Of a stretch of DNA of 49,093 bases, positions 1 through 42,842 are shown piece after piece. Source of the stretch: a virus. Its lineage: Duplodnaviria > Heunggongvirae > Uroviricota > Caudoviricetes. Every line of letters starts with the position of its first letter. Within the stretch, counting starts at the first letter, position 1. Both the position numbers and the translations under genes were made by a program. The notes beneath the pieces are model-generated. The model was given only the letters and a program-made list of their open reading frames with translations. It was not told where the DNA came from and made no database searches. Location: positions 1 through 49,093 of IMG/VR virus record IMGVR_UViG_2718218136_000007. One strand, given 5' to 3'.

Positions 1-546
1 ATGAACATTAGTGAACTTAAAAACTGTATACACTATGAAGTAATAGGTTATAAACGCCCTTTCTCCTGGCGAAAAGCAATTGTTCGCGCAATAAAACACA
101 GAAGATTACGTTATTTATTTTGGTGGCGCATAGCAAAATATCTTTTTGATAAAGGCGGATACCGGCGAAAGGTTGCAGGAAAAATAGAACGCTTCATTCT
201 TGATAAATACAATGTAACCGTTCCCTTAACTGTAAATATTGGTAAAGGGTTCGACATATCTTATCTCAATGGCGTTGTTATCGGTCACAAAGTTACAATA
301 GGTGAAAATTGTTCAATTAAGCCTGGAGTAACTATTGGACTTCGTGGTGAATTTAATGCTATGGATATTGTCATAGGAAATAATGTAACCATTGGCTGTA
401 ACGCCACCATCCTTGGTGGCAAAGTGCATATAGGGAATAATGTAAAAATAGGAGCTCATGCATTGGTACTGCATGACATTCCTGATGACTCCACATTCAT
501 TACTAAATTTCACTCTGAAATTATTTATAACTCATCTCACACATAA
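1..546 (+). CDS. Hexapeptide-repeat (left-handed beta-helix) acyl/acetyltransferase; moron distal to the tail fibre genes
   Basis: 181-aa ORF with repeated [LIV]-G-x-x-x-x hexapeptide motifs (VIGHKVTIGENCSI, VIGNNVTIGCNATILGG, VHIGNNVKIGAHALV); AT-rich relative to phage genes; opposite strand to tail genes. Confidence 0.6.
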   Translation: MNISELKNCIHYEVIGYKRPFSWRKAIVRAIKHRRLRYLFWWRIAKYLFDKGGYRRKVAGKIERFILDKYNVTVPLTVNIGKGFDISYLNGVVIGHKVTIGENCSIKPGVTIGLRGEFNAMDIVIGNNVTIGCNATILGGKVHIGNNVKIGAHALVLHDIPDDSTFITKFHSEIIYNSSHT

Positions 547-556
547 TTCCGTTTAA

Positions 557-1129
557 TCACAGCTCTGGCCATACGATATCCGGGGCTGTATTTATATCAA
601 TCCGACTCACTAATACCCGGTATTTTTTCCAGGAAGATAGCATCGAGACATCCTCATCAGTTGCCATTTCAAAATTAACAGCATCCTGCAGAATTGTTAT
701 GTTATCAGTCGCTTCCTGGATTAATCTTGCCTTTTTCTCTTCCGCCTCCCGGATCCGGAACAGTTTTTCTACTTCTGCATCTTTCACCCAGGCTGTACCG
801 TTCCACTTCTGAAACTCCCCATCCGGCGACAACCAGGTGACATTTTCCGGTAACGAGCCAAGTTCAGAAATAAATAACGCGTCGCCGGAAGCCACGTCAT
901 AGACGGTTTTTCCCCGATGATCTTCAACGAGATGCCACGATGCCTCATCACTGTTGAAAACAGCCACAAAGCCAGCCGGAATATCTGGCGGTGCAATATC
1001 GGTACTGTTTGCTGGCAGACCTGTATGAGGCGGAATATATGCGTCACCTTCACCAATAAATTCATTAGTTCCGGCCAGCAGATTATAAATTTTTATGGTC
1101 CGTGGTTGTTCACTCATTCTGAATGCCAT
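557..1129 (-). CDS. tfa: Tail fibre assembly protein (Tfa)
   Basis: 190 aa; N-terminus [48 protein letters not shown] matches lambda Tfa from memory; start overlaps stf stop (TAATG). Confidence 0.85.
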
Positions 1130-4100
1130 TATGCAAGCCTCACAATATAGTTAAATGCGATGTTTTTGACGGTGTTTTCCGCGTTACCAGCAGCGTTAAC
1201 GGTGATGGTGTGTCCATGTGAACCAATCGCAACGGAGTGCGTGTGTGCACCAATACCGACAGTATGTGCGTGTGCACCTGCAGATGCTGCTGTGCCGGAC
1301 AGTGAGTGGCTATGGTTACCATCTGTACTGGTATTAGCTAACGCCCCCGTAGACATACCTACTGAGCCTTGTACACCCCAGGTATTTTGACCTGAGCTTG
1401 TATAACCATATTGATAAGTATCTTTAAAAACACTGGGGTTAAATCGACGGCCATCTCTATGGCTGTGATTACCAGCTGCATTCGTGCTGCCACTTAAACT
1501 ATGGGTATGCGCACCAGTGTTATTCGTGGATTTAGTGCCGTAATCAAACGACGATGTGGTTTTCGTCCCCAAATCAGTACTGGATGCGCTGGCGCTGTGG
1601 GTATGCGATTTTATGCCGTCCTGTTCCTGAGACAATACGGCACGACCACTGGCGGGCTTGCCCTTAATCGTCCAGCCACGCATATCAGGGATCACGCCTG
1701 ACGGATAAGCGGCTGCAAGTTTCGGGTAGGCAGATTTGTCAAAAGTCTGCCCCTGCATCAGGGCATAACCAGACGGAACGGTATCTGATGGCCACGGGAT
1801 TGGTGCGCCGACTGGGTAGCTTTCTGGTGGAAGATTTTTCGAGGTATAAACTTCTGCCCAGTCTTCCTCAAAACCATAACCGTCTCTTGAAGAACGGTAG
1901 AACAGACCACCATTTCTGTAATGCGCCTTCATCTGCAAGGTCCGGCAACTTCCGACTCCGGTATAGAAGTTAACCAGAATATAGCTGTCGCCAGAGCGGG
2001 TGACATTGTAAGCGCCTGATTCGGCATTCCAGGGAACGCCACCATCCGCATCGGCATATGTATCCGTTGCCCTTCTGGCAAAAGCAGCCACATGCGCGGC
2101 GGTTAAAGTAATATCTTTGGAACCATCAAACTCAACACCAGAAACCCGTCTTGGCGTTTGCAGCTTTGTTGCTGTCAATGCGTTACCGTTCAGACTTGCA
2201 GACAGCTTGGTTCCAATAACCAGTTCGCCGGTTGCGTTATCAATAGCAAACGGTCTTAATGTATTCCATCCACCATAAACATCACCTTGATTGGTAAGCA
2301 GCAGGTAAGTTTTAGCGCCATCATTACGCCATAATGCCCCATACTCCCCACCTATCATTCGAATCTGATTACCACCACGCGCTACAATTTCGTCTGTGGC
2401 AAAAAGTTTTTTGCACGACAAGTTATCGTTAACGATTAACGAATGGGACTCATAAAAACCACGCCCACTCTTAAAATCAAGGATAACGTCCGCCGCGATA
2501 CATTCAGTCGCCGGATTTGTTGCCCCAAACTTATAGGTCGTATCATCAACAACGAGATCAGCACCAGGTGCGGATATTGACAGGCCATCTTCGATAAACG
2601 CAAAAACAGGGAAAGCAGCGCCATCAACATAGAACACAGAGCGCAAATCATCGCCCTTATTACTCATCATTATTGAGTGGATGGCTCGTTCATTGTTTTG
2701 ATATTGCCAGAACATTCCATAAGCATAACGCCCCCTGTCAGTCCAGCCACCAGGCATAACAAATCCGTTAAACTCGCAGTTATTCATCGGATCGCCTGCG
2801 GTTCGCGTTGCCGTGGTGATAATGACCCTTGATGCCAGTTCGCTTACTGAGCCAGCAGAACGCATAACAACAACAGGATAATATTTTCCAGATGTTGCAC
2901 CTGCAGGAGCGTTAACCCGCACATAACGCATACCACGCTTATCAGCAAAGTCTGTTTTACTGACCGCGTTAATGTTGTTCAGGAAGCGTCCCTTATCGGG
3001 TATATCAGCGCCGTTCTGGTCTTTCTGCAGACGTTTCTCTGCATTGTCATAGGCTGCTTTTACTGCCTTTGGCGTTGCCGCCAGCGTTTCAGACGTGCTG
3101 TTGGTCGCGCTGCTGAGCTGTACTATCCCCTTTTTCGTCGTGCTCGCATCCTCAAGCGCCACGGCGGATGCAATATCCTCTGCCCGTTTTGCCGCTGTCT
3201 CGGCGCGCGTTGCTGCAGATTCCGCCGTACTTTTGCTCTGTGCTGCCGCCGTCGCACTGCCAGCTGCCTCTGTCGCCTTCGTGGATGCTGTCGTGGCGCT
3301 GCCCTTCGCTGCGGACGCTTGTCTGGTCGCCTCATCTTTTGAAGCAGACGCCGATGATGCCGATGACGCCGCCGAACTGGCGGACGATGCGGCAGCCGTT
3401 TTTGAGGATTCTGCGCTGGTTTCCGACGCTTTCGCGTTCGTCTCGGATGTCTTCGCTGCGGAAGCAGACCTCGCTGCTGCGCTGGCCTGTTCAGTGGCTT
3501 CGCCAGCCTTCGTTGTGGCTGTTGAAGCAGACGATGCGGCACTTTCTGCCGATTTTCCGGCGGCGGTGGCACTGGCTGAGGCCTGCCCGGCACTTGTTGA
3601 CGCTGCACTGGCAGACGACGCAGCCGCTGTTTTTGAGCCTGCCGCAGCCGAGGCGCTCTGTCCCGCTGCCGTTTCAGAAGACCTGGCGTTTGTCTCGGAC
3701 GTCTTTGCCGCCTTCGCGGAATTGCCTGCTGCCGTTGCCGAGGAAGCGGCACTACTGGCGCTTGATGATGCGTTCGTTTCTGATGATTTCGCTGCCTCTT
3801 TTGAGGCCGCCGCATCCCGGGCTGAGGTGGCAGCTTCTGACGCCTTCATGGTCGCGGCGGATGCAGAAGTGGCTGCTGATTGTTGTGACGCTGCCGCATT
3901 CGTTTCCGACGTTTTCGCCGCAGCGGCACTGGTGGCTGCCGCGCTTTTTGAGGACTCTGCAGCGGCAGCACTTTTTTCCGCTTCACTGGCCTTTGTTGAT
4001 GCCGTTCCTGCGCTGGAAGATGCTGACTGAGCCGACGTCGCGGCCTGCCCGGCTGATGTGCTGGCTGCACGTGCTGAGCCTGCAGCATCAGTCGCATGGG

Positions 4101-4527
4101 TTGCCGCCTCACGGGCTGATGTGCCGGCATCGCTGGCTGACTTCTTCGCGGCTGCCGTGTTCTGTGCCACCGCGGACGCGTTACGCGCCACCTCTTCCAC
4201 CATCAGTTCAAAACGGCGTAGTGCCTCCGGACGGGCATCATCCTCCGTCATGGCACCGAGAAAATCATTCAGCGTACCGGGTCGGGAATCTTCATACACG
4301 GTGATGGTCCCGGCATGTGACGGCGGGAATCCTTCCACCAACAGAATAACGCTGTACTGACCGTGCTCAACGTCCATGCTGTAACGCCCGGCTTCATCCG
4401 GATTTTCTGAGGCCAGCGTGTTCACCACCACCGTGGTGCTGTTACGTTTTGCTTTCAGCTGGATTGTGCAGTTCTGTACCGGTTTTCCTGTGCCGTCTTT
4501 CAGTACACCTGAAATCTTTACTGCCAT
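1129..4527 (-). CDS. stf: Side tail fibre protein (Stf) with long Ala/Ser/Thr-rich repeat region and C-terminal HxH-motif tip
   Basis: N-terminus [26 protein letters not shown] and C-terminus ...[11 protein letters not shown] match lambda Stf as recalled; ATG at 4527 (track start 4533 is an upstream GTG); KTSETNA-type repeats; GAHTHS/GNHSHS/GAHAHT motifs. Confidence 0.85.
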
Positions 4528-4537
4528 ATTCACCCCA

Positions 4538-4565
4538 CAAAAAAGCCCGCCTGAAACGGCGGGCT
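4538..4565 (-). terminator. Candidate intrinsic terminator downstream of lom
   Basis: Minus-strand RNA: stem AGCCCGCC / GGCGGGCU (plus-strand 4544-4551 and 4558-4565), 6-nt loop, followed by U6 (plus-strand A6 at 4538-4543). Confidence 0.45.
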
Positions 4566-4591
4566 GTCATAACACTGTGTTACCTGGCTAA

Positions 4592-5191
4592 TCAGAACTT
4601 ATAACCGACACCCACGATGAAACCGTCAGTGCGCCAGTCGCCACTGCCGGAGCCTTCATAAGCAATATCAATGGCCACGGATTCGGTCGGGTTAAACTGC
4701 ACGCCAGCTCCCCACGCCAGAGACGTGTTGCTGTGGCGACCGTCATCACTTCCGGTCAGCACATCGTGCGTTTTCCCCTTGTTGTCAGTTACGCGGAGAT
4801 AATCCCCGGAGAAAGTCGACACACGGCTGTAAGCCACACCCGCCATCGCATACGCGCTGAACCATTCATTCACGCGCACAGACGGCCCCGCCATTACGCT
4901 GAACCAGCGGTTACGAACGGAATCTTCATGCCAGCGGGTATCGCTGTAACGGGTCAGCTGGCGATTCTTGTCTCCTGCATAGCTGAATGACGTCACCAGC
5001 CCCAGTGTGTCCGTAAACTCATAACGGTATTTCACGTTAATCCCGTTCAGATCATCACTGCCGGGGACGTTCGTCGAGGCATGAAGATACCCCGCGCTCA
5101 GCGTGGACTGATGTTCAGACGCCCATGCAGGCGCACCGGATACGGCCAGACAAATGGCTGCGGACAAAATTGCTGCACAAACTTTACGCAT
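4592..5191 (-). CDS. lom: Outer membrane protein Lom (Ail/Lom family)
   Basis: 199 aa, N-terminal signal peptide MRKVCAAILSAAICLAVSGAPAWA, beta-barrel-like alternating pattern, ends ...GVGYKF; position between J and stf as in lambda. Confidence 0.85.
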   Translation of the reverse strand: MRKVCAAILSAAICLAVSGAPAWASEHQSTLSAGYLHASTNVPGSDDLNGINVKYRYEFTDTLGLVTSFSYAGDKNRQLTRYSDTRWHEDSVRNRWFSVMAGPSVRVNEWFSAYAMAGVAYSRVSTFSGDYLRVTDNKGKTHDVLTGSDDGRHSNTSLAWGAGVQFNPTESVAIDIAYEGSGSGDWRTDGFIVGVGYKF

Positions 5192-5261
5192 AATTACCTC
5201 TCGCTTTTCTGCAATAAAAAAGGCGTCATTCCTGACGCCCTTTATTGGGGTTATAAATATT

Positions 5262-8200
5262 TCAACGAATACTGATGCCGGAAGCGGCTTTTTTGGTCAC
5301 AATCACCGTACAGTCGGTGATATTGCCTGCCCCCTGATTGCCTTTCTGGAAAATCTTAAACTCCAGAGTGACGCTTCCCCTGCCACTCGGCATATCAATA
5401 ACTGCACTGTAACTACCGGGAATGGCCCCTTTAGTTTCTCTGGATGCGATTAATACGCCGTTTTTGCGAACTTCAAAACCATAACCCGTGTATCGCGTGC
5501 CTCCTGGGTTATTTCCGCTCCCCGGATCGTCATACGCTATACCGTTAAAAATAATGGGCGGAATAATAATCTGGCGGTCAAAGTTATGATCATCGCTGAT
5601 GGTGACTGTAACCGTACCGTTTGGTGTTTCCGTGTTACCCCACGTACCGACTTTTTTCGGGAAGGCTTTTGATACAGCTTTAACGAAATCTCCTCTGACC
5701 TGGGTCGCCTCCAGCATGCCCTTAATCGTACAGTTCTGGTTAATCGTGACATTGTTGAGCGTTCCTGAGTTCGCATTCACACTGCCACTGATATCCGCAT
5801 TTTTCGCCGTCAGTCTCCCGTCTGATGTCAGGGAAAATGCCGGAGGATTACCGCCGCTGGTAATGGTGGGGGCCGTCAGGCGTTTCAGGAACACTTCATT
5901 CATGAATATCTGATCGCCCTGACCAACAAACATCGGCTTTGTGTTGCCATTCGCAGGATTAATCATCGCAATCCTGTCTGCTGCCAGCAGCACCTGACTC
6001 TGCATGCCGTCAGGGGTGTTCTCAATACCGGCACCGATACCCGCAATATAAAGGCGTCCGTCCTGCATCTGCTGCAGCTTCACTGCCCACATGCTGTTCA
6101 GGTTATTATTTGTATCAACCTGAACCTTCTGTATCTGCTGGATCGCTGCACTCTGGTCTTCCAGTTTCTTATTGACGGTCTGTGTTATTTCATTGCTGAC
6201 ATCCGTTATGGACGTCCTGATTTCAGTCAGGTCAGGCGCAAGCTGACCGTTATCAATCTGCGTCCACAGCTCCTGAGCCAGATGGGTTTTCCCTATCTCG
6301 CCTTTGAAAAAATCCAGATAGCCTGATGCATCATCACTCGGCTGACCGACAGCCTCCACGAATGCCGATTTGCCAACGGTGTTCACACTGCGAACGTAAA
6401 AATAATAATCATGGCCCGGTTTGATATTGATACTGGCGGCTATCCAGTACAGTGCCGTACCAAGATAACGCGCGCTGGTTTCAACCTGCCTGATATCCGC
6501 AATCCGTTTTTCCGAGAACCAGAACTCAAACTGTACCGTCGGGTCATAAACCGCAAGATGCGGCGTGGCAGTTATCTGAAAATAGCCCGGCGTCAGCTCA
6601 ATCCGCGACGGTGCTACCGGTGCGGCAATCCTGAACGATACCGACGCCGGATCGCCCTGCTGTCCCCACGCATTTACCGCCCGGACTGTCAGCGTGTACC
6701 GTCCCAGCGCCAGTTGCGTGAAGCGGTATGTGGTTTCCGCCGTCCGGGCCGTGCTGACCAGCCGCTCACTGCCGTCATCCGCTGCCACGGTCAGGCGAAG
6801 CAGGAAGCTCACGCCCTTCACCACCTTCGGCGTGTCCCATCGCGCCAGCACCTGATATTCCCCGCTGTCTGCAGTGACTTCGGCGGTCAGATGCTGCACT
6901 GCTGGCGGCGTGACACCATTCACCGTGCCGCTCTGGTCGCCGTCAAAGTGCGCCCCGTTATCCACGATGGCCTCTTTTTCCGGTACATGCTGCACGGCGG
7001 TGATGGCATACGTGCCGTCATCGTTCTCACGGATACTCACGCAGCGGAACAGGCGCTGGCGCAGCGTCGGCAGCTTCAGCCCCCACACGCTGTATCCGGC
7101 AACGCCGTCAGGAACACGGCTCACTTTTACCTTCACGCCGTCGGTGACGGACTGGACCTCCACGCTGACCGGATTGCCACTTCCGTCAACCAGGCTTATC
7201 AGCGTGGTACCGGAGGATGGCAGCGTGATTTCACGGTCGAGCGTCAGCGTCCGGGTCTGGCTGTTCACCGCCAGCACGCGCCCGCCGATGCTGATACCGG
7301 CATAGTCATCATCGCAGATTTCAATGACATCGCCCGGTACATGGCGAAGCCCTTCGGCACCCACGCTGAAGTCCACGGTCTGCGTTTCCAGCAGTTCTGT
7401 TTTAATCAGCCACAGCCCGGCGCGGTGTGCCTGCCCCCGGCTGGTACAGCCAAAAGCATCCATCTTCGTGACGTTACGACCGTAACGGGCAATGGCCTGC
7501 GTGTCCTCCACAAGCTCTGTCGCCGTCTCCCAGCCGTTATTCGGGTCAATCCAGTTCACCTCAACGGCATTATGGCGGTCCTTCAGGGCGCTGAAGCTGT
7601 AGCGGAACGGCGCACCATCATCCGGCATCACCACATTACTGCGGTTATAGGTCCACACCTTATCCGACGGTCGGTCCTGCACGAACGTCAGCGTCTGCCC
7701 GTTCCATACCGGCATACAGCGCATCGCAGAGCAGAAATCACTGAGCACATCCCACGCCTTGCGCTGTGTGGTCAGGTACGCATTACAGGTGATGCGCGGC
7801 TCCGTGCCGCCAAAACCGTCCGGCACCGACTGATCGCAATGCTGGCCGATGACATACAGCGCCCATTTGTCCACATCCGCCGCACCAAGACGTTTCCCCA
7901 TGCCGTAGCGCGGATGGGTCAGCATATCCCACAGACACCAGGCCATGTTGTTGCTGTATGCTGGCTTAAACGTTCCGTCCCAGATACCGCTGTATTGCCG
8001 CGTCTGCGGGTTATAGTTCGACGGCACCTGCAGAATGCGCCCGCGCAGATGATAATTACGGCTCACCTGCTGGCTGCCGAACTGCTCCGAATCCACCTGC
8101 ACGCCGACCAGTGCCGTGTTCGGGTAGCACTGTTTCACATCGATGATTTCGGTGTATGACGACCAGAGCGTTTTGTTCTGCAGCTGGTCTGTGGTGCTGT

Positions 8201-8759
8201 CCGGCGTCATCCTGCGCATCCGTATATTGAACGGGCGCGGCGGCAGGTTACCCACCACCACCGAGGCCAGATACTGCGAGGTGGTTTTGCCCTTAATGGT
8301 GATGTCTTTTTCCGTCACCCAGCCACCATTACGCTGGATCTGAACCAGCAGGCGGACTTCCGACGGATTCCGGTCCCCCTTTGAGGTGGTTTCCACCAGT
8401 GCCTGCACGCCGAAGGTAAAGCGCAGACGGTCAATGTTTGCCGACGTGATGGTCCGGGTGATCGGCGTGTCATATTTCACTTCTGTACCGAGCACCGTCT
8501 CGGAGCCGGAGGATTCAAATCCCTCCGGCGGTGTCTGCTCCTGCTCACCGGCCCGGAACACCACCGTGACGCCGGATATATTGGTATTCCCCTCACTGTC
8601 CAGCACCGGCGTACTGTTCAGCAGCACGCTTTTTAATCCATCCACCGGACCTTCAACCGGCCCTTCGCTGATGGCATCGATCACACTCAGCAGCTGCGTG
8701 GACTTCAGGTTGTCCTTCGCTTCGCGCGGGGTATGCCCCTTACTGCTGCCTTTACCCAT
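5262..8759 (-). CDS. J: Central tail fibre / host specificity protein J
   Basis: 1165 aa; N-terminus [37 protein letters not shown] is lambda J-like; position after I. Confidence 0.9.
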
Positions 8760-8819
8760 TCGTCATGCTCCATAAACGATAAAACCGCCCGCAGGCGGTT
8801 TCACATAAAATGTTTTGCA

Positions 8820-9461
8820 TCAGCGACCAATCACCACAACCTGACCACCGTCCCCTTCGTCTGCCGTGCTGATCTCCTGAGAAACCACACGTGACCCCAC
8901 ACGCATTTCACCGTACAGAACGGGCAGGACATTGCCCTGGGCAACCATATTATCCAGTGAAGAAAAATAGGTGTTCTGTTTGCCGTTATCCGTTGTCTGT
9001 GTGCGGGGGGTTTTGGGTTTAGGGGCCAGCATCTGTGCAACACCGCCAAGCGTCATACTGGCACCGAGAGAAAACAGCAGATTACTCGCCATAATTCCTA
9101 CCCCCGGCATCCATATAGCAACCGCCATAACAGCCGCCCCCAGCACAGCCTGAAACACACCGCCACTTTTGGCTCCCGCCAGACGCGGCACGATATGGAT
9201 CACAGCACCATTTGCCAGCGGTTCATTAAGACGGGCTGATAATTCCGTTTCACCTGTATCACGCCCGGCAATGCGTACCTGATACCAGCCGTCGCTCAGC
9301 TTCTGACGAAACGCCGGGATCTGCATGGCCAGCGCCCGGATGGCTTCGGCCCCCGTTTTCACACGCAGATCGATGCGGCGGCCAAATCGTTGTAAATCCC
9401 CGTAAAGGCAGATGCGCGCCATGCCCGGTGACGCCAGAGGGAGTGTGTGCGTCGCTGCCAT
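8820..9461 (-). CDS. I: Tail assembly protein I
   Basis: 213 aa, MAATHTLPLASPGMARICLYGDLQRF... ending ...GDGGQVVVIGR, lambda I-like; overlaps 3' end of K. Confidence 0.85.
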   Translation of the reverse strand: MAATHTLPLASPGMARICLYGDLQRFGRRIDLRVKTGAEAIRALAMQIPAFRQKLSDGWYQVRIAGRDTGETELSARLNEPLANGAVIHIVPRLAGAKSGGVFQAVLGAAVMAVAIWMPGVGIMASNLLFSLGASMTLGGVAQMLAPKPKTPRTQTTDNGKQNTYFSSLDNMVAQGNVLPVLYGEMRVGSRVVSQEISTADEGDGGQVVVIGR

Positions 9462-10102
9462 TTGTCGGTATACCTCTCTCGTTTGCTCAGTTGTTCAGGA
9501 ATATGGTGCAGCAGCTCGCCGTCACCACAGTAAATGGCGGCATGATTCGGCACCGATGAACCAAAGCAGCACAGCAGCACGTCGCCAGGCTGCGCCTCTG
9601 TCAGTGCGACACGGTAAAAACCAGTCGCCTCCATATTGTCAAGATAGAGATTCTGACCGTTACGCCACCAGTCATCCTCACGATGAAAGTCCGGCATCTC
9701 AATCCCCGCCAGATGATAAGCATCCCGGAACAGTGTGTAACAGTCCGTCACACCGTGCTCAAAGCGCCGCCCGGTGAGATGCGGCACACAGCGGAACTTA
9801 TGAATCGTCCCCCGGCAGACCAGCCACCACGGCAAATCACTCTGCACCTGCAGCCGCCGGTCGGCCTCACTCAGCCAGGGCAGACCACCGGGGTGGCTGT
9901 GGACCAGCGCCACAATCTCACCCTGCATTTCTGCCTGCAGCCAGTCTTCCGGCGACATACGGAAATACGCCTCCGGCTCACCGGAGATATTCACGTAGGG
10001 GAAATATCTTTCCCCCTCCGGCGTGCTTACCACGAAGCCGCACGACTCCGCTGGCGCACATCGCCGGGCGTGCGCCAGAATCGCTGATTCTGTCTGTGTC
10101 AT
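9359..10102 (-). CDS. K: Tail assembly protein K (MPN/JAB plus NlpC/P60-like)
   Basis: 247 aa; HSHPGG (JAMM-like) motif and C/H residues; 5-bp gap after L as in lambda. Confidence 0.85.
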   Translation of the reverse strand: MTQTESAILAHARRCAPAESCGFVVSTPEGERYFPYVNISGEPEAYFRMSPEDWLQAEMQGEIVALVHSHPGGLPWLSEADRRLQVQSDLPWWLVCRGTIHKFRCVPHLTGRRFEHGVTDCYTLFRDAYHLAGIEMPDFHREDDWWRNGQNLYLDNMEATGFYRVALTEAQPGDVLLCCFGSSVPNHAAIYCGDGELLHHIPEQLSKRERYTDKWQRRTHSLWRHRAWRASAFTGIYNDLAAASICV

Positions 10103-10107
10103 GGGAT

Positions 10108-10806
10108 TTACTGCGAAAGTTTGTTAATGGAAAGGAAGCCGCCAAAGTTGCCGACGTTATTGCGGAACTTACAACCGCTCAGGCATTTGCTGCATTTATC
10201 CTTCGTGATATCGGACGTTGGCTGGTCATATTCATCCGCGACAGCCGGACCGCTATAACCGCACTCGTCACCGCGATAGGTCCAGGTGCAGGTGTTGGCC
10301 AGCATGATACGTCCCGGAAAAACAGCGCCATCCGTTTCCGTCGGCGTGGACAGTACAAAGGAGGCACTCACCGCGCTCAGTTCGCTGCACTGCTCAATGC
10401 GCCAGCGGCTGATCACCTCCTGCTCCGGATCGGCATAACTGTTTCCGTTGACGAAGTTCACCGCATCCAGAAAACGGGCGTAAACCTTACGCCGGACCAC
10501 CGTTCCGCCGACCAGACTCTGCATATCTTCCGCCATCCCGGTGACCATACCGTACAGGTTAGAAACCGTCAGCGTGGGGCGCGTACTGGTGCCTTTGCCA
10601 TTCAGTTCAAAACCGCTCCCCTGAATGGGATACGGCTGATACTGTCGCCCCTGCCAGGTGACCGGCTCACCTTTTTCGTTCTGCTCATTACAGAAAAAAT
10701 AACGTTCTCCACCGACCTCTGTCAGGTCGATTTCCCAGAGCACCACGCTGGCCGACTGCTCCGCACGGGTGCATTCATTCAGTGTTTCCTGCCGGATATC
10801 CTGCAT
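10108..10806 (-). CDS. L: Tail tip protein L
   Basis: 232 aa, same length as lambda L; Cys cluster CSKCLSGCKF near C-terminus. Confidence 0.9.
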   Translation of the reverse strand: MQDIRQETLNECTRAEQSASVVLWEIDLTEVGGERYFFCNEQNEKGEPVTWQGRQYQPYPIQGSGFELNGKGTSTRPTLTVSNLYGMVTGMAEDMQSLVGGTVVRRKVYARFLDAVNFVNGNSYADPEQEVISRWRIEQCSELSAVSASFVLSTPTETDGAVFPGRIMLANTCTWTYRGDECGYSGPAVADEYDQPTSDITKDKCSKCLSGCKFRNNVGNFGGFLSINKLSQ

Positions 10807-11135
10807 CAGTTCACCACCTGTTCAAACTCTGCGCTGAACTCAACACGCAGCATACTGACCCGCGACGACCATTTTGCGCAGGTCACCTTTATCTGCCGCC
10901 ACTCATAAGGCGGCGTCCACAGAAAGGCTTTCCAGCCCCCGTGCTCTTCCAGAAACGACTCCAGTACCGTGGCCTCCTCACGGGGGACAGAAAGCGTCAC
11001 GCTGTACGTTTTCAGGTTGGCATTCAGCCCGGCAGGCGCTCGCTGAGAATAGCCATCACCAAAGCGCACCTTTCTTACAGAAGGGACCGAAGCCACATCC
11101 ATACCGGGTTTCACTTTCCAGCGGAAGGTCTTCAT
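10806..11135 (-). CDS. M: Tail tip protein M
   Basis: 109 aa, lambda M-like; overlapping start/stop with L and H. Confidence 0.9.
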   Translation of the reverse strand: MKTFRWKVKPGMDVASVPSVRKVRFGDGYSQRAPAGLNANLKTYSVTLSVPREEATVLESFLEEHGGWKAFLWTPPYEWRQIKVTCAKWSSRVSMLRVEFSAEFEQVVN

Positions 11136-12242
11136 CGTCCACCTCCGGAGAACAGGCCACCATCACGCATCTGTGTCTGAATTTCATCACGGGCACCCTT
11201 GCGGGCCATGTCATACACTGCCTTCATCATCTGTGGACCTGGCAGACCATTCGTACCGTCGTTCTGAATCACCACGTTGTTGTTCTGCTCAAACCTGATA
11301 CCCTCTGAACGCCGCATTTGCGCCGGACTTCCGGTGCCACCGACATAACCGCCGGTGGCATAGCCGCGCATCAGCCGGTAGAGATTTCCCACGCCAATCC
11401 GGCTGGTTGCCTCCTTCGTGAAGACAAATTCACCACGGTGAACAATCCCCGCTGGCTCATATTTGCCGCCGGTTCCCGTAAATCCTCCGGTTGCAAAATG
11501 GAATTTCGCCGCAGCGGCCTGAATGGCTGTACCGCCTGACGCGGATGCGCCGCCACCAACAGCCCCGCCAATGGCGCTGCCGATACTCCCGACAATCCCC
11601 ACCATTGCCTGCTTAAGCAGAATTTCTGTCATCATGGACAGCACGGAGCGGGTGAAGCTGCGCCAGTTCTGCTCACTGCCGGTCAGCATCGCCGCCATAT
11701 TCTGTGCAATACCATCAAAGGTCTGCGTGGCTGCACTTTTTACCTGCGACATACTGTCCGTGGCGCTCTCTTCCCACTCACTCCAGCCGGACTTCAGGCC
11801 TGCCATCCAGCTCCCGCGAAGCTGGTCTTCAGCCGCCCAGGTCTTTTTCTGCTCTGACATGACGTTATTCAGCGCCAGCGGATTATCGCCATACTGTTCC
11901 TTCAGGCGCTGTTCCGTGGCTTCCCGTTCTGCCTGCCGGTCAGTCAGCCCCCGGCTTTTCGCATCAATGGCGGCCCGTTTTGCCCGTTGCTGCTGTGCGA
12001 ATTTATCCGCCTGCTGCGCCAGCGCGTTCAGGCGCTCCTGATACGTAACCTTGTCGCCAAGTGCAGCCAGCTGGCGTTTGTACTCCAGCGTCTCATCTTT
12101 ATGCGCCAGCAGGGATTTCTCCTGTGCAGACAGCTGGCGACGTTGCGCCGCCTCCTCCAGTACCGCGAACTGACTCTCCGCCTTCCACAAATCCCGGCGC
12201 TGCTGGCTGATTTTCTCATTTGCTCCGGCATGCTTCTCCAGC
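11132..12242 (-). pseudogene. H: Tape measure protein H, 3' fragment (gene split by IS66-family insertion)
   Basis: ORF 11132-12334 begins with 25 IS-derived residues, then continues ...TLEKHAGANEKISQQRRDLWK... to ...RDGGLFSGGGR (lambda H C-terminus). Confidence 0.85.
12235..12242. repeat. 8-bp target-site duplication (TCTCCAGC), left copy, flanking the IS66-family element
   Basis: Identical octamer at 14942-14949; flanks join to give continuous H coding sequence (...LRTLEKHAG...). Confidence 0.8.
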
Positions 12243-12295
12243 GTAACCGGCTCATTTAAACCGTCTGGTCTATTTCCTCCGGCTCTACAAAAATA

Positions 12296-12973
12296 ATGTC
12301 CATCATTTTTAATGGACACTATCGTATGAAACACCGGACCTGGATCACTGAAGCTTTACGTCTTCACTTTGAAGAACATTTACCCCGGGTTGTGGCCGGG
12401 CGTCGCCTGGGTGTACCAAAATCAACAGTTTGTAGTATGTTCGTGCGCTTTCGGAGAGCTGGCCTTTCGTGGCCTTTGCCCGCAGGCATGTCGGAGCAGG
12501 AACTTGATGCCTGCCTTTACGGACAATTTTCCACGGTACCAGTCGTACGTCCTGAAAGCACCGTTATATCCGAAGCCCCCATGGTAAAAAAACGTCCCCG
12601 GCGGCCCAACTTCCCTTATGAGTTTAAAATCGCCTTAGTGGAGCAGTCACTGCAGCCCGGAGCCTGTGTGGCGCAGATCGCCCGGGAAAACGGAATCAAC
12701 GATAACCTGCTCTTCAACTGGCGCCATCAATACCGGAAAGGTGGCCTGCTGCCTTCCGGAAAAAATATGCCGGCACTGCTTCCCGTGACGTTAACGCCGG
12801 AGCCGGATAATAAAATCCCGGCCCCCGCACAGGAACCAGAGCAGATAAATACACCGTCCGACAGTCTGTGTTGTGAGCTGGTTCTGCCGGCCGGAACTCT
12901 CAGGCTTAAAGGTAAACTGACGCCGGCGTTATTACAGACACTTATCCGCGAAATAAAAGGGAGCAGCCACTGA
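12296..12973 (+). CDS. IS66-family accessory protein TnpA (OrfA), HTH; start uncertain (internal ATG at 12581 gives a 130-aa product)
   Basis: C-terminal part ...QPGACVAQIARENGINDNLLFNWRHQYRKGG... typical of IS66 OrfA; stop overlaps tnpB start (ATGA). Confidence 0.7.
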   Translation: MSIIFNGHYRMKHRTWITEALRLHFEEHLPRVVAGRRLGVPKSTVCSMFVRFRRAGLSWPLPAGMSEQELDACLYGQFSTVPVVRPESTVISEAPMVKKRPRRPNFPYEFKIALVEQSLQPGACVAQIARENGINDNLLFNWRHQYRKGGLLPSGKNMPALLPVTLTPEPDNKIPAPAQEPEQINTPSDSLCCELVLPAGTLRLKGKLTPALLQTLIREIKGSSH

Positions 12974-13320
12974 TGATATCTCTCCCTGCAGGTTCGCGTA
13001 TCTGGCTGGTTGCAGGTATCACCGATATGCGAAATGGCTTTAACGGCCTGGCATCAAAAGTTCAGAACGTCCTGAAGGATGACCCGTTCTCCGGACACCT
13101 GTTCATCTTCCGCGGACGCCGGGGTGACCAGATAAAAGTGTTGTGGGCTGACAGTGACGGACTGTGCCTCTTCACCAAACGCCTGGAGCGGGGCCGCTTC
13201 GTCTGGCCAGTCACCCGTGACGGCAAGGTGCACCTTACTCCGGCTCAGTTATCCATGCTTCTTGAAGGTATCAACTGGAAGCACCCGAAACGAACGGAAC
13301 GCGCTGGAATCCGCATATAA
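12973..13320 (+). CDS. IS66-family TnpB (Orf2)
   Basis: 115 aa, MISLPAGSRIWLVAGITDMRNGFNGLA... characteristic of IS66 Orf2. Confidence 0.8.
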   Translation: MISLPAGSRIWLVAGITDMRNGFNGLASKVQNVLKDDPFSGHLFIFRGRRGDQIKVLWADSDGLCLFTKRLERGRFVWPVTRDGKVHLTPAQLSMLLEGINWKHPKRTERAGIRI

Positions 13321-13339
13321 CCCGTTGTAAAGTGAGGAT

Positions 13340-14911
13340 ATGGACACCTCACTTGCTCATGAGAACGCCCGCCTGCGGGCACTGTTGCAGACGCAACAGG
13401 ACACCATCCGCCAGATGGCTGAATACAACCGCCTGCTCTCACAGCGGGTGGCGGCTTATGCTTCCGAAATCAACCGGCTGAAGGCGCTGGTTGCGAAACT
13501 GCAACGTATGCAGTTCGGTAAAAGCTCAGAAAAACTTCGTGCAAAAACCGAACGGCAGATACAGGAAGCACAGGAGCGAATCAGCGCACTTCAGGAAGAA
13601 ATGGCGGAAACGCTGGGTGAGCAATATGACCCGGTACTGCCATCCGCCCTGCGCCAGTCTTCAGCCCGTAAACCGTTACCGGCCTCACTTCCCCGTGAAA
13701 CCCGGGTTATCCGGCCGGAAGAGGAATGCTGTCCTGCCTGTGGTGGTGAACTCAGTTCTCTGGGATGTGATGTGTCAGAGCAACTGGAGCTTATCAGCAG
13801 CGCCTTTAAGGTTATCGAAACACAACGTCCGAAACAGGCCTGTTGCCGGTGCGACCATATCGTGCAGGCACCAGTACCTTCAAAACCCATTGCACGCAGT
13901 TATGCCGGAGCGGGGCTTCTGGCCCATGTTGTCACCGGGAAATATGCAGACCATCTGCCGTTATACCGCCAGTCAGAAATATACCGTCGTCAGGGAGTGG
14001 AGCTGAGCCGTGCCACACTGGGGCGCTGGACAGGTGCTGTTGCTGAACTGCTGGAGCCGCTGTATGACGTCCTGCGCCAGTATGTGCTGATGCCCGGTAA
14101 AGTCCATGCTGATGATATCCCCGTCCCGGTCCAGGAGCCGGGCAGCGGTAAAACCCGGACAGCCCGGCTGTGGGTCTACGTCCGTGATGACCGTAACGCC
14201 GGTTCACAGATGCCCCCGGCGGTCTGGTTCGCGTACAGTCCGGACCGGAAAGGTATCCATCCACAAAATCACCTGGCCGGTTACAGCGGTGTGCTTCAGG
14301 CCGATGCTTACGGTGGTTACCGGGCGTTATACGAATCCGGCAGAATAACGGAAGCCGCGTGTATGGCTCATGCCCGGAGAAAAATCCACGATGTGCATGC
14401 AAGAGCGCCCACCTACATCACCACGGAAGCCCTGCAGCGTATCGGTGAACTGTATGCCATCGAGGCAGAGGTCCGGGGCTGTTCAGCAGAACAGCGTCTG
14501 GCGGCAAGAAAAGCCAGAGCCGCGCCACTGATGCAGTCACTGTATGACTGGATACAGCAACAGATGAAAACACTGTCGCGTCACTCAGATACGGCAAAAG
14601 CGTTCGCATACCTGCTGAAACAGTGGGATGCACTGAACGTGTACTGCAGTAATGGCTGGGTGGAAATCGACAACAACATCGCAGAGAACGCCTTACGGGG
14701 AGTGGCCGTAGGCCGGAAAAACTGGATGTTCGCGGGTTCCGACAGCGGTGGTGAACATGCGGCGGTGTTGTACTCGCTGATCGGCACATGCCGTCTGAAC
14801 AATGTGGAGCCAGAAAAGTGGCTGCGTTACGTCATTGAACATATCCAGGACTGGCCGGCAAACCGGGTACGCGATCTGTTGCCCTGGAAAGTTGATCTGA
14901 GCTCTCAGTAA
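13340..14911 (+). CDS. IS66-family transposase TnpC
   Basis: 523 aa, N-terminal leucine-zipper-like region, CxxC...CxxC zinc motif (CCPACGG...CCRCDH), DDE-type core. Confidence 0.8.
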
Positions 14912-14941
14912 ATATCAATACGGTTCTGACGAGTCGCTTAC

Positions 14942-16418
14942 TCTCCAGCGTCCGGAGTTCTGCCTGAAGCGTCAGCAGGGCAGCATGAGCACTGTCTTCC
15001 TGACGATCGCCCGCAGACACCTTCACGCCGGACTGTTTCGGCTTTTTCAGCGTCGCTTCATAATCCTTTTTCGCCGCCGCCATCAGCGTGTTGTAATCCG
15101 CCTGCAGGATTTTCCCGTCTTTCAGTGCCTTGTTCAGTTCTTCCTGACGGGCGGTATATTTCTCCAGCGGCGTCTGCAGCCGTTCGTAAGCCTTCTGCGC
15201 CTCTTCGGTATATTTCAGCCGTGATGCCTCAGACTCGACCCAGTCCTTTGCTGCCATCTCTCTGGCCTTTTCAAGATCGGCCTGCAACGTGGCGGCTGAA
15301 AGCCCAAGTTGCGCATTCGCTCTGTCCTCCCATGCTCCCCGGAGATTGGCAAGAAATGCTGAGGTTTTACCGCGCCGGTGGCTCCGGCTCTGATACCACT
15401 GCCATTTTTTGTCCGCCTCATCAAAAGCCTTTTCTGCTTTCTCCAGCATTCCCTGGGCAGTGTCCGGGCGACCAATATCCAGCACCGAATCCCACATGGA
15501 TTTGAATGCCCGTGCTGTCCTGTCTGCCCAGGTCTCCAGCGTGCCCATGTTCTCTTTCAGGCGGCGGGTCTGGTCATCAAACCCTTTCGTTGCGGCCTCG
15601 TTCGCCGCCTGCAATGCCCCGGCTTCATCTCCGGAACGCTGCAACTGAGCAACATACGCAATCTGCTCCGCCGTCACGTTATGGAACTGACGTGCCATCG
15701 CTGTCAGTCCCGACGTCGGGTCTGTGGTCAGCTTCCCGAAGGCTTCAGCGACCTTGTCCACCTCCACGCCGGATGCAGAGGAGAAACGCGCCACACTCTG
15801 GCTGATCGCCTCAAACTGCTCACCACCACGCACACCGGCATTCACCAGCGCCGTCAGTGACTCGCTGGTCTGGTTAAACGTCAGCCCTGCCGCCTGCCCG
15901 GCTCTGGACAGGACCAGCATACGATCTGCCGTCAGTCCCGCCTGATTGCCGGAAAGGACCAGCGTTTTGTTGAAATCGGACAGGGTTGAGTTGCCCTGAT
16001 ACCAGGCATACGCCAGCGCACCGGTCGCCACCGCCAGCGAGGTGGCCCCCACCATCGGCAGGGTGATCGCACCGGCAAGCCCCCTGAACATGGGGATCAT
16101 CCCGCCGAAGGAGTCCTTAACCTGACCCCCCTGTTGCAGCAGGATCAGCCACGGGCTTTGCCCGCCTGCAAGCTGCGTGGCCACGTCGGTGAACTGTGCA
16201 GGCAGCATACGCATGGCGGCTTTATACTGCCCGACGGAAATCCCCGCTTTCTGTGCAGCCAGCGCCTGTCGGCTCAGCGACTGTTCAACGACTGCCGCTG
16301 TTTTTTTCGCATCAGTTTCCGTACCGGAAAAATGACGCCTGACTCTGGCCATCTGCTCGTCAAATCTGGCCGCATCCAGACTTAAATCAACGACCAGATC
16401 GCCTACCGGTTCAGCCAT
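14942..16418 (-). pseudogene. H: Tape measure protein H, 5' fragment (truncated by IS66-family insertion)
   Basis: ORF 14832-16418 begins MAEPVGDLVVDLSLDAARFDEQMARVRRHF (lambda H N-terminus), runs to ...LQAELRTLE, then 36 IS-derived codons and a stop. Confidence 0.85.
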
Positions 16419-41152: not shown

Positions 41153-41231
41153 ATGTTTTCGAAATGGAAGGGTTTCTTCGCGGGAAATGTGTACCGCGAG
41201 ATCTGAAAGTGAACGAAACAAATGCTGAGTA

Positions 41232-42560
41232 CTGAGAGATCCCCTCATAATTTCCCCAAAGCGTAACCATGTGTGAATAAATTTTGAGCTAGTAGGGTTG
41301 CAGCCACGAGTAAGTCTTCCCTTGTTATTGTGTAGCCAGAATGCCGCAAAACTTCCATGCCTAAGCGAACTGTTGAGAGTACGTTTCGATTTCTGACTGT
41401 GTTAGCCTGGAAGTGCTTGTCCCAACCTTGTTTCTGAGCATGAACGCCCGCAAGCCAACATGTTAGTTGAAGCATCAGGGCGATTAGCAGCATGATATCA
41501 AAACGCTCTGAGCTGCTCGTTCGGCTATGGCGTAGGCCTAGTCCGTAGGCAGGACTTTTCAAGTCTCGGAAGGTTTCTTCAATCTGCATTCGCTTCGAAT
41601 AGATATTAACAAGTTGTTTGGGTGTTCGAATTTCAACAGGTAAGTTAGTTGCTAGAACCCATGGCTCCTTTGCCGACGCTGAGTAGATTTTAGGTGACGG
41701 GTGGTGACAATGAGTCCGTGTCGAGCGCTGATTTTTTCGGCCTTTAGAGCGAGATTTATACAATAGAATTTGGCATGAGATTGGATTGCTTTTAGTCAGC
41801 CTCTTATAGCCTAAAGTCTTTGAGTGACTAGATGACATATCATGTAAGTTGCTGATAGGTTTCCAGTTTTCCGCTCCTAGGTCTGCATATTGTACTTTTC
41901 CTCTTACTCGACTTAACCAGTACCAACCCAGCTTCTCAACGGATTTATACCATGGCACTTTAAAGCCAGCATCACTGACAATGAGCGGTGTGGTGTTACT
42001 CGGTAGAATGCTCGCAAGGTCGGCTAGAAATTGGTCATGAGCTTTCTTTGAACATTGCTCTGAAAGCGGGAACGCTTTCTCATAAAGAGTAACAGAACGA
42101 CCGTGTAGTGCGACTGAAGCTCGCAATACCATAAGTCGTTTTTGCTCACGAATATCAGACCAGTCAACAAGTACAATGGGCATCGTATTGCCCGAACAGA
42201 TAAAGCTAGCATGCCAACGGTATACAGCGAGTCGCTCTTTGTGGAGGTGACGATTACCTAACAATCGGTCGATTCGTTTGATGTTATGTTTTGTTCTCGC
42301 TTTGGTTGGCAGGTTACGGCCAAGTTCGGTAAGAGTGAGAGTTTTACAGTCAAGTAATGCGTGGCAAGCCAACGTTAAGCTGTTGAGTCGTTTTAAGTGT
42401 AATTCGGGGCAGAATTGGTAAAGAGAGTCGTGTAAAATATCGAGTTCGCACATCTTGTTGTCTGATTATTGATTTTTCGCGAAACCATTTGATCATATGA
42501 CAAGATGTGTATCTACCTTAACTTAATGATTTTGATAAAAATCATTAGGGGATTCATCAG
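41232..42560 (-). mobile_element. IS10 (1329 bp) insertion sequence
   Basis: Ends CTGAGAGATCCCCTCATAATTTCCCC (inside end, 41232-) and ...GGGGATTCATCAG (reverse complement of outside end CTGATGAATCCCC, ending 42560); flanked by 9-bp direct repeat TGCTGAGTA. Confidence 0.9.
41245..42453 (-). CDS. tnpA: IS10 transposase (IS4 family)
   Basis: 402 aa, MCELDILHDSLYQFCPELHLKRLNSLTLACHALLDCKTLTLTELGRNLPTKA... characteristic of Tn10/IS10 transposase. Confidence 0.9.
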   Translation of the reverse strand: MCELDILHDSLYQFCPELHLKRLNSLTLACHALLDCKTLTLTELGRNLPTKARTKHNIKRIDRLLGNRHLHKERLAVYRWHASFICSGNTMPIVLVDWSDIREQKRLMVLRASVALHGRSVTLYEKAFPLSEQCSKKAHDQFLADLASILPSNTTPLIVSDAGFKVPWYKSVEKLGWYWLSRVRGKVQYADLGAENWKPISNLHDMSSSHSKTLGYKRLTKSNPISCQILLYKSRSKGRKNQRSTRTHCHHPSPKIYSASAKEPWVLATNLPVEIRTPKQLVNIYSKRMQIEETFRDLKSPAYGLGLRHSRTSSSERFDIMLLIALMLQLTCWLAGVHAQKQGWDKHFQANTVRNRNVLSTVRLGMEVLRHSGYTITREDLLVAATLLAQNLFTHGYALGKL

Positions 42561-42842
42561 TGCTGAGTACCTGGTACGTAAATTCGACGCGCTTGAAGCT
42601 AAATGTGCGGCACTGGAAAACAAAATAATACCAGTGTCAACTGAACTGCCACCAGCAAATGAAAGTGTTCTGTTATTTGATGCTAATGGAGAAGACTGGC
42701 TGATTGGCTGGCGTTCTCTCTGGTACACCTGGGGACAAAAAGAAACCGGAGAATGGCAGTGGACATTTCAGGTCGGGGACCTTGAAAACTTCAATATCAC
42801 TCACTGGGCAGTAATGCCCAAAGCGCCGGAGGCTGGAGCATA

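Follow-up and report, generated by a model that had tools for sequence, protein, structure and literature searches.

Can the lambda-like prophage in this stretch of DNA still build its own tails? The question is raised by its tape-measure gene, H, which is present as two separate open reading frames (ORFs) with the genes of an insertion sequence (IS) between them. The window (the whole stretch that was analyzed, 49,093 nucleotides, IMG/VR record IMGVR_UViG_2718218136_000007) carries the gene order tfa-stf-lom-J-I-K-L-M-H-T-G-V-...-A-Nu1, all as open frames in the ORF list, and the morphogenesis genes other than H are of roughly the expected size. H is flanked by G/T and M, with the G/GT frameshift site upstream (slippery sequence GGGAAAG, 16851-16845) and M-L-K-I-J downstream, in agreement with annotated relatives. 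The prophage also harbors a full-length Dsr1 defence gene, other cargo comprising a DNA methylase, Lom, and immunity to superinfection, and a second IS insertion, of the IS10 type. The features of the interrupted region, in window positions, are as follows:

11132..12242, minus strand: 3' part of H, the C-terminal 369 codons including the duplicated octamer; Pfam Tape_meas_lam_C, E 1.2e-21; colinear with intact tape-measure proteins
12235..12242, no strand: left copy of the target-site duplication, 8 bp, TCTCCAGC
12243..14941, plus strand: ISCro1-like IS66-family insertion sequence, 2699 bp; near-identical database copies, and ends shared in three independent insertions
12243..12268, plus strand: left terminal inverted repeat, GTAACCGGCTCATTTAAACCGTCTGG; 18/26 positions match the reverse-complemented right end
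12296..12973, plus strand: tnpA, 225 aa, long form; HTH_Tnp_1 at residues 102-159 (PF01527), IstA-type helix-turn-helix (HTH) at residues ~13-85
12973..13320, plus strand: tnpB, 115 aa; PF05717, E 4.7e-40; NCBIfam NF033819
13340..14911, plus strand: tnpC, DDE transposase, 523 aa; PF03050, E 2.5e-103; NCBIfam NF033517, 478 bits
14916..14941, minus strand: right terminal inverted repeat, reverse complement GTAAGCGACTCGTCAGAACCGTATTG; right end identical in two other copies, L001 and L004
14942..14949, no strand: right copy of the target-site duplication, 8 bp, TCTCCAGC
14942..16418, minus strand: 5' part of H, codons 1-492; Pfam TMP_2, E 4e-71; colinear with intact tape-measure proteins

As present in the window, the 5' ORF of H (14832-16418, 528 aa) runs to ...LQAELRTLE and continues with 36 residues read from the IS, and the 3' ORF (11132-12334) has a GTG start inside the IS and 30 IS-read residues ahead of TLEKHAGANEK; the ORF translations thereby bear out the IS-derived tail and head described in the earlier note. 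The TMP_2 and lambda-type C-terminal domains, which a gpH-type protein holds in one polypeptide, are found here on two separate ORFs. In silico removal of the element and of one repeat copy yields a continuous H of 859 aa; the uninterrupted frame that the earlier note predicted was thus recovered, with its length corrected from ~857 aa. The restored protein aligns without gaps to the tape measure of phage phiSTEC1575-Stx2k (859 aa; 98% identity), and is 90% identical to the 853-aa H of an E. coli prophage. It has the same Pfam domains as lambda gpH-type tape measures (TMP_2 and Tape_meas_lam_C) and a similar length (859 aa vs 853-859 aa), and the window gene differs from these in being broken after codon 492. 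The empty site is also represented in a sequenced genome: when aligned to an uninterrupted H, the flanks join into a continuous frame, and across the 112 bp of the rejoined junction there is no difference from the intact H gene of E. coli NZ_OX030701 (100% identity). With domains on both halves and this empty-site alignment, the proposal that an element interrupts a lambda-type tape-measure gene holds, and H is, judged by its sequence, a lambda gpH-family member, but a disrupted one.

The element itself is 2699 bp long, with GTAACCG as its first letters and CGCTTAC as its last, and its genes are oriented opposite to H. Its terminal inverted repeats are imperfect and start with 5'-GTAA (left GTAACCGG..., right, reverse-complemented, GTAAGCGA...); the left repeat occurs once within the window. 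The flanking octamer TCTCCAGC is found in one copy only at the matching point of uninterrupted H genes, and accidental identity of 8 bp on both sides has a chance of 4^-8 (~1.5e-5). Two other copies of the IS provide independent support for the boundaries, since each shares the same ends and has its own 8-bp duplication: L001, in pilV, has TTTGTTGT, and L004, inserted in a homologous H gene but at another position, has CCACACTC. In the alignment, the sequence that these two copies have in common with the window extends exactly from GTAACC through GCTTAC. Because the IS and the right flank both start with GT, the direct repeat could also be read as 10 bp (TCTCCAGCGT), but the other copies favor the 8-bp reading, and an 8-bp target duplication is the length given for IS66 in the literature. 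All coordinates of the octamers and of the intervening element given previously were correct on rereading the sequence. Recombination between two IS copies, as opposed to simple insertion, is ruled out by the intact duplication and by flanks that are colinear with intact H.

Consecutive tnpA, tnpB, and tnpC genes lie on one strand of the element, the gene triplet by which the IS66 family is recognized. The tnpB ATG overlaps the tnpA stop by one base (TGATG, 12971-12975), and tnpC starts 19 bases past the tnpB stop, as in the IS66-type spacing of about 20 bp. All three products have NCBIfam matches exceeding the curated cut-offs (IS66_access_TnpA, IS66_TnpB, and transpos_IS66). In TnpC, PF03050 is aligned over profile positions 1-283 of 284, and the IS66 zinc-finger, leucine-zipper, and C-terminal domains (PF13005, PF13007, PF13817) are also above their cut-offs. 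The Pfam and NCBIfam matches of the three ORFs are all to the IS66 family and, together with the octamer copies and the empty site, substantiate the earlier identification of an IS66-family element with a tnpA-tnpB-tnpC triplet and an 8-bp target duplication. Transposition of IS679, a relative, is reported by Han et al. to need all three genes. The window copy retains an intact ORF for each of the three genes, and near-identical IS copies are present at many different sites, which suggests recent transposition activity. IS679 and IS66 are the experimentally studied members of the family (Han et al., 2001, J Bacteriol 183:4296, cited in PMC6778807); features in common with the window element are the tnpA-tnpB-tnpC layout, a tnpC DDE transposase, imperfect terminal repeats, and an 8-bp duplication.

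Full-length 2699-bp copies with one mismatch occur in more than a thousand records from E. coli, Salmonella, and E. albertii, and the best match has at least 99% identity in 1775 E. coli records and 961 plasmid records. The transposase of the one-mismatch copies is labeled by PGAP, the NCBI annotation pipeline, as 'IS66-like element ISCro1 family', and similar copies in IncI-type plasmids, with 8-bp repeats, have been described by their authors as ISCro1 or 'most similar to ISCro1'. The name ISCro1 originates from Citrobacter rodentium ICC168, a strain with 24 copies of the element (PMC3072379). The name appears to be loosely used, as the 'ISCro1 element' of one paper is given as 2,824 bp, and we therefore term the element ISCro1-like, on the basis of the PGAP label and of these papers. 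ISCro1-labeled copies have the same three genes, gene lengths, and 8-bp duplication as the window element and differ from it at one private base, an A instead of a G at IS position 30 (window 12272). The C. rodentium plasmid pCROD1, inspected for a reference ISCro1 copy, lists no annotated IS66 genes. The first 35 bases of the IS gave no exact match in species-representative genomes, a result that is uninformative on host range because the query contained the private base at IS position 30. The element is an already catalogued and very common IS, and its insertion is an ordinary kind of event.

In lambda-type tails, a full-length tape-measure protein is needed to start assembly and to fix tail length; Katsura and Hendrix are said to have found that lambda H mutants build no tails and that tail length is set by gpH. 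The course of events is best explained as follows. An ISCro1-like IS66-family element transposed into H of a lambda-like prophage, entering after codon 492 of 859 and generating an 8-bp target duplication, as IS66 elements typically do. What is left of H is an N-terminal fragment of 492 residues with a 36-residue nonsense tail, and a C-terminal fragment lacking a proper start signal. On its own, the prophage would then form no functional tails and no plaques, since lambda-type tail assembly needs the full-length tape measure; by analogy with lambda gpH, it is plausible that this prophage is unable to make its own tails. Several features also suggest that the insertion is recent: the two copies of the octamer are identical, a single base separates the IS from its commonest allele, both parts of H are without stops or frameshifts, and the other morphogenesis genes are open. 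The anatomy, the family, the empty site, and the wide distribution of the element are directly shown by the sequences, and the tail-less phenotype and the recency are inferences. We consider this account as a whole, from transposition into H to a recent loss of self-made tails, very likely to be right. Precise excision across the 8-bp repeats, a rare event, could bring H back.

The same junction was not found among 5,426 complete E. coli genomes, in which the sole record with at least 80% query coverage was a two-piece match in which a homologous H is interrupted at another position. The exact 34-base left junction was absent from species-representative genomes, viral contigs, and metagenome contigs, and an exact-product look-up did not return the 528-aa truncated H.

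A broken H need not keep the genome from being transferred if a co-resident lambdoid prophage were to supply full-length H or whole tails, in which case particles with the window genome would still be released. Such relatives appear to be common, as genomes that match the tail region (window 1-12242) do so in a median of three places per genome. There is also a precedent in E. coli O157 Sakai, where IS insertions in lambda-like prophages knock out single morphogenesis or packaging genes (e.g., nu1 of Sp4) and leave the rest intact, and where prophages whose morphogenesis genes are IS-disrupted or missing nevertheless undergo packaging and transfer, which the authors credit to inter-prophage complementation (PMC2669165). 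The Sakai cases involve another IS, another target gene, and another strain, and the activity of those prophages was measured, whereas the window is known from sequence. The window holds one prophage only, and progeny phage would keep the broken H and be unable to propagate alone. We regard help from a co-resident prophage as possible, though rather unlikely.

Considerably less probable is that selection kept the insertion by grounding the prophage, with the host retaining its cargo (Dsr1, DNA methylase, Lom, superinfection immunity) while viral spread was disabled. The full-length Dsr1 gene and the second, IS10-type insertion fit such a history, as does the independent ISCro1-like insertion in the homologous H of another E. 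coli strain. The host gain from grounding would be small, however, because a tail defect blocks neither induction nor lysis. An IS with thousands of copies is expected, by chance, to have hit a 2.6-kb gene twice when each genome carries that gene several times over, and the window insertion was found in one genome only, and thus gives no sign of spread. A related and similarly improbable proposition is that ISCro1-type elements hit lambda-like tape-measure genes more often than chance, in one preferred orientation; the two independent insertions are at different sites, and both are opposed to H. If it were true, the element would be a recurrent natural switch that grounds prophages, with the host keeping cargo such as Dsr1. 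Least credible of all is misplacement of a multicopy IS inside H by the assembler, since, although elements with multiple identical copies frequently cause misassembly and the exact junction was in none of the collections searched, both junctions are base-exact at known element ends, the window copy has its own SNP at IS position 30, and a misjoin would not make a perfect 8-bp duplication of an octamer that is single-copy in intact H.

The finding bears mainly on annotation. The H fragments are best entered as a single pseudogene with a mobile element inside it. Although the prophage looks almost complete, its annotation should state that it probably cannot make its own tails; software that takes gene content as the sign of an "intact" prophage would rate it too highly. 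The event is known in kind, and it adds nothing new to IS66 biology or to tail assembly.

Of wider use may be the N-terminal extension of TnpA. The earlier note had called this in-frame stretch of ~95 aa unusual, a description that the databases contradict: PGAP gives the 225-aa form as its standard TnpA for the ISCro1-like element (WP_001682408), the curated NCBIfam equivalog NF038385 spans residues 13-206 (295 bits), and a relative that is 88% identical over the extension retains the entire 225-aa frame. NF047595, the model of the short TnpA type (113 positions), aligns to no more than residues 102-219, which places the window element in a long-TnpA subgroup. A Pfam scan of the extension alone gave only sub-threshold HTH hints, and a search for solved structures related to TnpA returned only chance matches, to His-tag sequences. 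By itself, the extension scores 96 bits against NF038385, and it matches the N-terminus of the ISEc12 IstA (BLASTP E 1e-6; reciprocal profile match E 2.7e-8). These matches identify the extension as a DNA-binding HTH domain akin to the N-terminal part of IstA from IS21. The domain is already in the NCBI family model, and its presence in both long TnpA and IS21 IstA hints at a domain exchange between the two IS families.

Gene H, the lambda-type tail tape-measure gene of this prophage, is interrupted by an ISCro1-like element; the insertion is real, its main points were read correctly in the earlier note, and it is not new. The element belongs to a known family, IS66, and the gene into which it inserted is well known. 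There is ample documentation of lambda-like prophages in which an IS has knocked out a single gene (PMC2669165).

The element carries three genes:

12296-12973, plus strand: tnpA, 225 aa, with an HTH_Tnp_1 domain
12973-13320, plus strand: tnpB, 115 aa, matching the IS66 Orf2 family (E 4.7e-40)
13340-14911, plus strand: tnpC, 523 aa, matching the full length of the IS66 DDE transposase domain (E 2.5e-103)

Zinc-finger, leucine-zipper, and C-terminal domains of the IS66 type are also present in the tnpC product, and all three products exceed the NCBI curated cut-offs for IS66 TnpA, TnpB, and transposase. The tnpA stop and tnpB start share one base (TGATG), and 19 bases separate the tnpB stop from the tnpC start. 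These domain matches uphold the proposed IS66-family identity with a tnpA-tnpB-tnpC set, and the element has all of the sequence-level features that define the family.

As had been noted, the octamer TCTCCAGC occurs in the window sequence at 12235-12242 and again at 14942-14949, and the 2699 bp between the two copies begin with GTAACCG and end with CGCTTAC; the element ends, read as inverted repeats, agree at 18 of the 26 terminal positions. At face value the flanking repeat is 10 bp long (TCTCCAGCGT), because the element and the right flank alike begin with GT. In two other copies, one in pilV (L001) and one at another site in a homologous tape-measure gene (L004), identity with the window spans exactly GTAACC to GCTTAC, and each copy has an 8-bp duplication of its own (TTTGTTGT in L001, CCACACTC in L004). 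Because these limits are common to both copies, each with its own duplication, the element spans 12243-14941, with an 8-bp duplication.

As it stands, H (minus strand) is divided between two reading frames:

14832-16418, minus strand: 5' ORF of H, which gains 36 IS-derived residues
11132-12334, minus strand: 3' ORF of H, whose GTG start lies within the IS

Pfam places TMP_2 (E 4e-71) in the 5' part and the lambda tape-measure C-terminal domain (E 1.2e-21) in the 3' part. Removal of the element and one octamer copy in silico yields a single open frame of 859 aa, with the insertion point after codon 492. Against the Escherichia phage phiSTEC1575-Stx2k tape measure, also 859 aa, the restored protein shows 98% identity and zero gaps; against an 853-aa prophage tape measure of E. 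coli NZ_OX030701 it shows 90% identity. Across the 112 bp rejoined at the junction, identity to the H gene of NZ_OX030701 is 100%, and that gene has a single octamer and is a clean empty site for the insertion; the flanks thus join into a continuous H frame, as predicted.

The element is widespread: best matches of at least 99% identity occur in 1775 E. coli records and 961 plasmid records (Escherichia, Shigella, Salmonella, Klebsiella, and others), and the matches in very many records span the full 2699 bp. PGAP, NCBI's annotation pipeline, labels the transposase of matching copies "IS66-like element ISCro1 family transposase." The top single-piece matches have bit scores equivalent to one mismatch, and the one base that departs from the commonest allele is an A for G at IS position 30 (window 12272), immediately inward of the left terminal repeat and on the upstream side of tnpA; this A is absent from the other aligned copies, and because of it an exact-match search with the left end of the element gave no hits. 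The name ISCro1 comes from Citrobacter rodentium, which carries 24 copies (PMC3072379), and similar plasmid and chromosomal copies, with 8-bp repeats, are called ISCro1 or "most similar to ISCro1" in the literature. That the window element is a copy of a named IS is almost certain, and "ISCro1-like" is the safe name for it. In E. coli 64EVA (L006, NZ_CP138399; 2195-6443), an ISCro1-like copy lies inside istA of the IS21-family element ISEc12, forming a nested IS.

The anatomy gives the mechanism: H was cut in transposition with an 8-bp stagger, and the element was inserted opposite to the orientation of H. Three features point to a recent insertion event: the duplication is perfect, the H halves are undamaged, and a single base separates the element from its commonest allele. 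In lambda, tail assembly cannot start, nor tail length be set, without full-length gpH, and H mutants are without tails; given this requirement, the prophage on its own should make no tails and would yield tail-less heads. A co-resident lambdoid prophage could be a source of H or of complete tails, for which the IS-damaged O157 Sakai prophages provide a precedent (PMC2669165), and on rare occasions gene H could also be restored if the element excised precisely across the 8-bp repeats.

None of 5,426 complete E. coli genomes had the exact insertion in H, nor did the species-representative genomes, viral contigs, or metagenome contigs; look-up of the truncated H protein found no record. An independent ISCro1-like insertion occurs at a different site in a homologous H gene of E. 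coli WP7-S17-ESBL-04 (the L004 copy; NZ_AP022177, ~6232-8930), in the same orientation relative to H as in the window. This shared orientation is mildly curious; chance is the simplest account of the two insertions, because copies of the element number in the thousands and H offers a large target that is itself multi-copy.

The ~95-aa N-terminal in-frame extension of TnpA, which the earlier note called unusual, proves to be ordinary: PGAP gives the element an identical 225-aa TnpA as its standard product (WP_001682408), and the curated NCBIfam equivalog NF038385 (190 positions) spans residues 13-206 (295 bits; 96 bits for the extension by itself). The short-TnpA model NF047595 reaches residues 102-219 only. 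A relative in E. coli H8 retains the full 225-aa frame with 88% identity across the extension; codon differences number 13 synonymous and 15 non-synonymous in the extension, and 13 and 3 in the core, so the extension is coding, though less tightly constrained than the core. By BLASTP it shares 33% identity over 55 residues (E 1e-6) and a WPLP motif with the N-terminus of ISEc12 IstA, and reciprocally, the ISEc12 IstA fragment matches NF038385 positions 5-70 (E 2.7e-8). Pfam by itself gave no more than sub-threshold helix-turn-helix hints on the extension, and no solved structures related to TnpA by sequence were found. The extension is a helix-turn-helix domain like the N-terminus of IS21-family IstA transposases:

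12332-12550, plus strand: IstA-related helix-turn-helix domain of TnpA, residues ~13-85 (BLASTP and reciprocal profile match)

The surrounding prophage is lambda-like, with an integrase at the right end of the window and tail-fibre genes and an acetyltransferase at the left. Its gene order is Nu1-A-W-B-C-D-E-...-V-G-T-H-M-L-K-I-J-lom-stf-tfa, entirely on the minus strand, with the G-T frameshift site GGGAAAG at 16851-16845; the morphogenesis ORFs other than H are all open and of about the expected sizes, and the flanks are matched best by prophages and phages of E. coli (97-99% identity). A 350-aa predicted DNA methyltransferase (29025-30077, minus strand; Pfam N6_N4_Mtase; PADLOC Type II MTase model, E 1e-151) is encoded just upstream of the lysis genes, by late-transcript order. 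Adjoining the integrase is a gene for a 1275-aa SIR2-domain protein (43860-47687, minus strand) that matches the PADLOC model for Dsr1 (defence-associated sirtuin 1) over positions 1-1275 of 1275 (2733 bits), and this Dsr1-type gene is anti-phage defence cargo of the prophage. A second IS, a 1329-bp IS10-type element (41232-42560; transposase 41245-42453, minus strand; PGAP label 'IS4-like element ISVsa5 family'), is flanked by a perfect 9-bp duplication, TGCTGAGTA (41223-41231 and 42561-42569), and splits a 117-aa early-region ORF (start 41149) after codon 27. E. coli ET12567 and EC21Z-014 match this element and both flanks in one piece (98.6%), which suggests that the insertion is shared or that the site is a hotspot for IS10.
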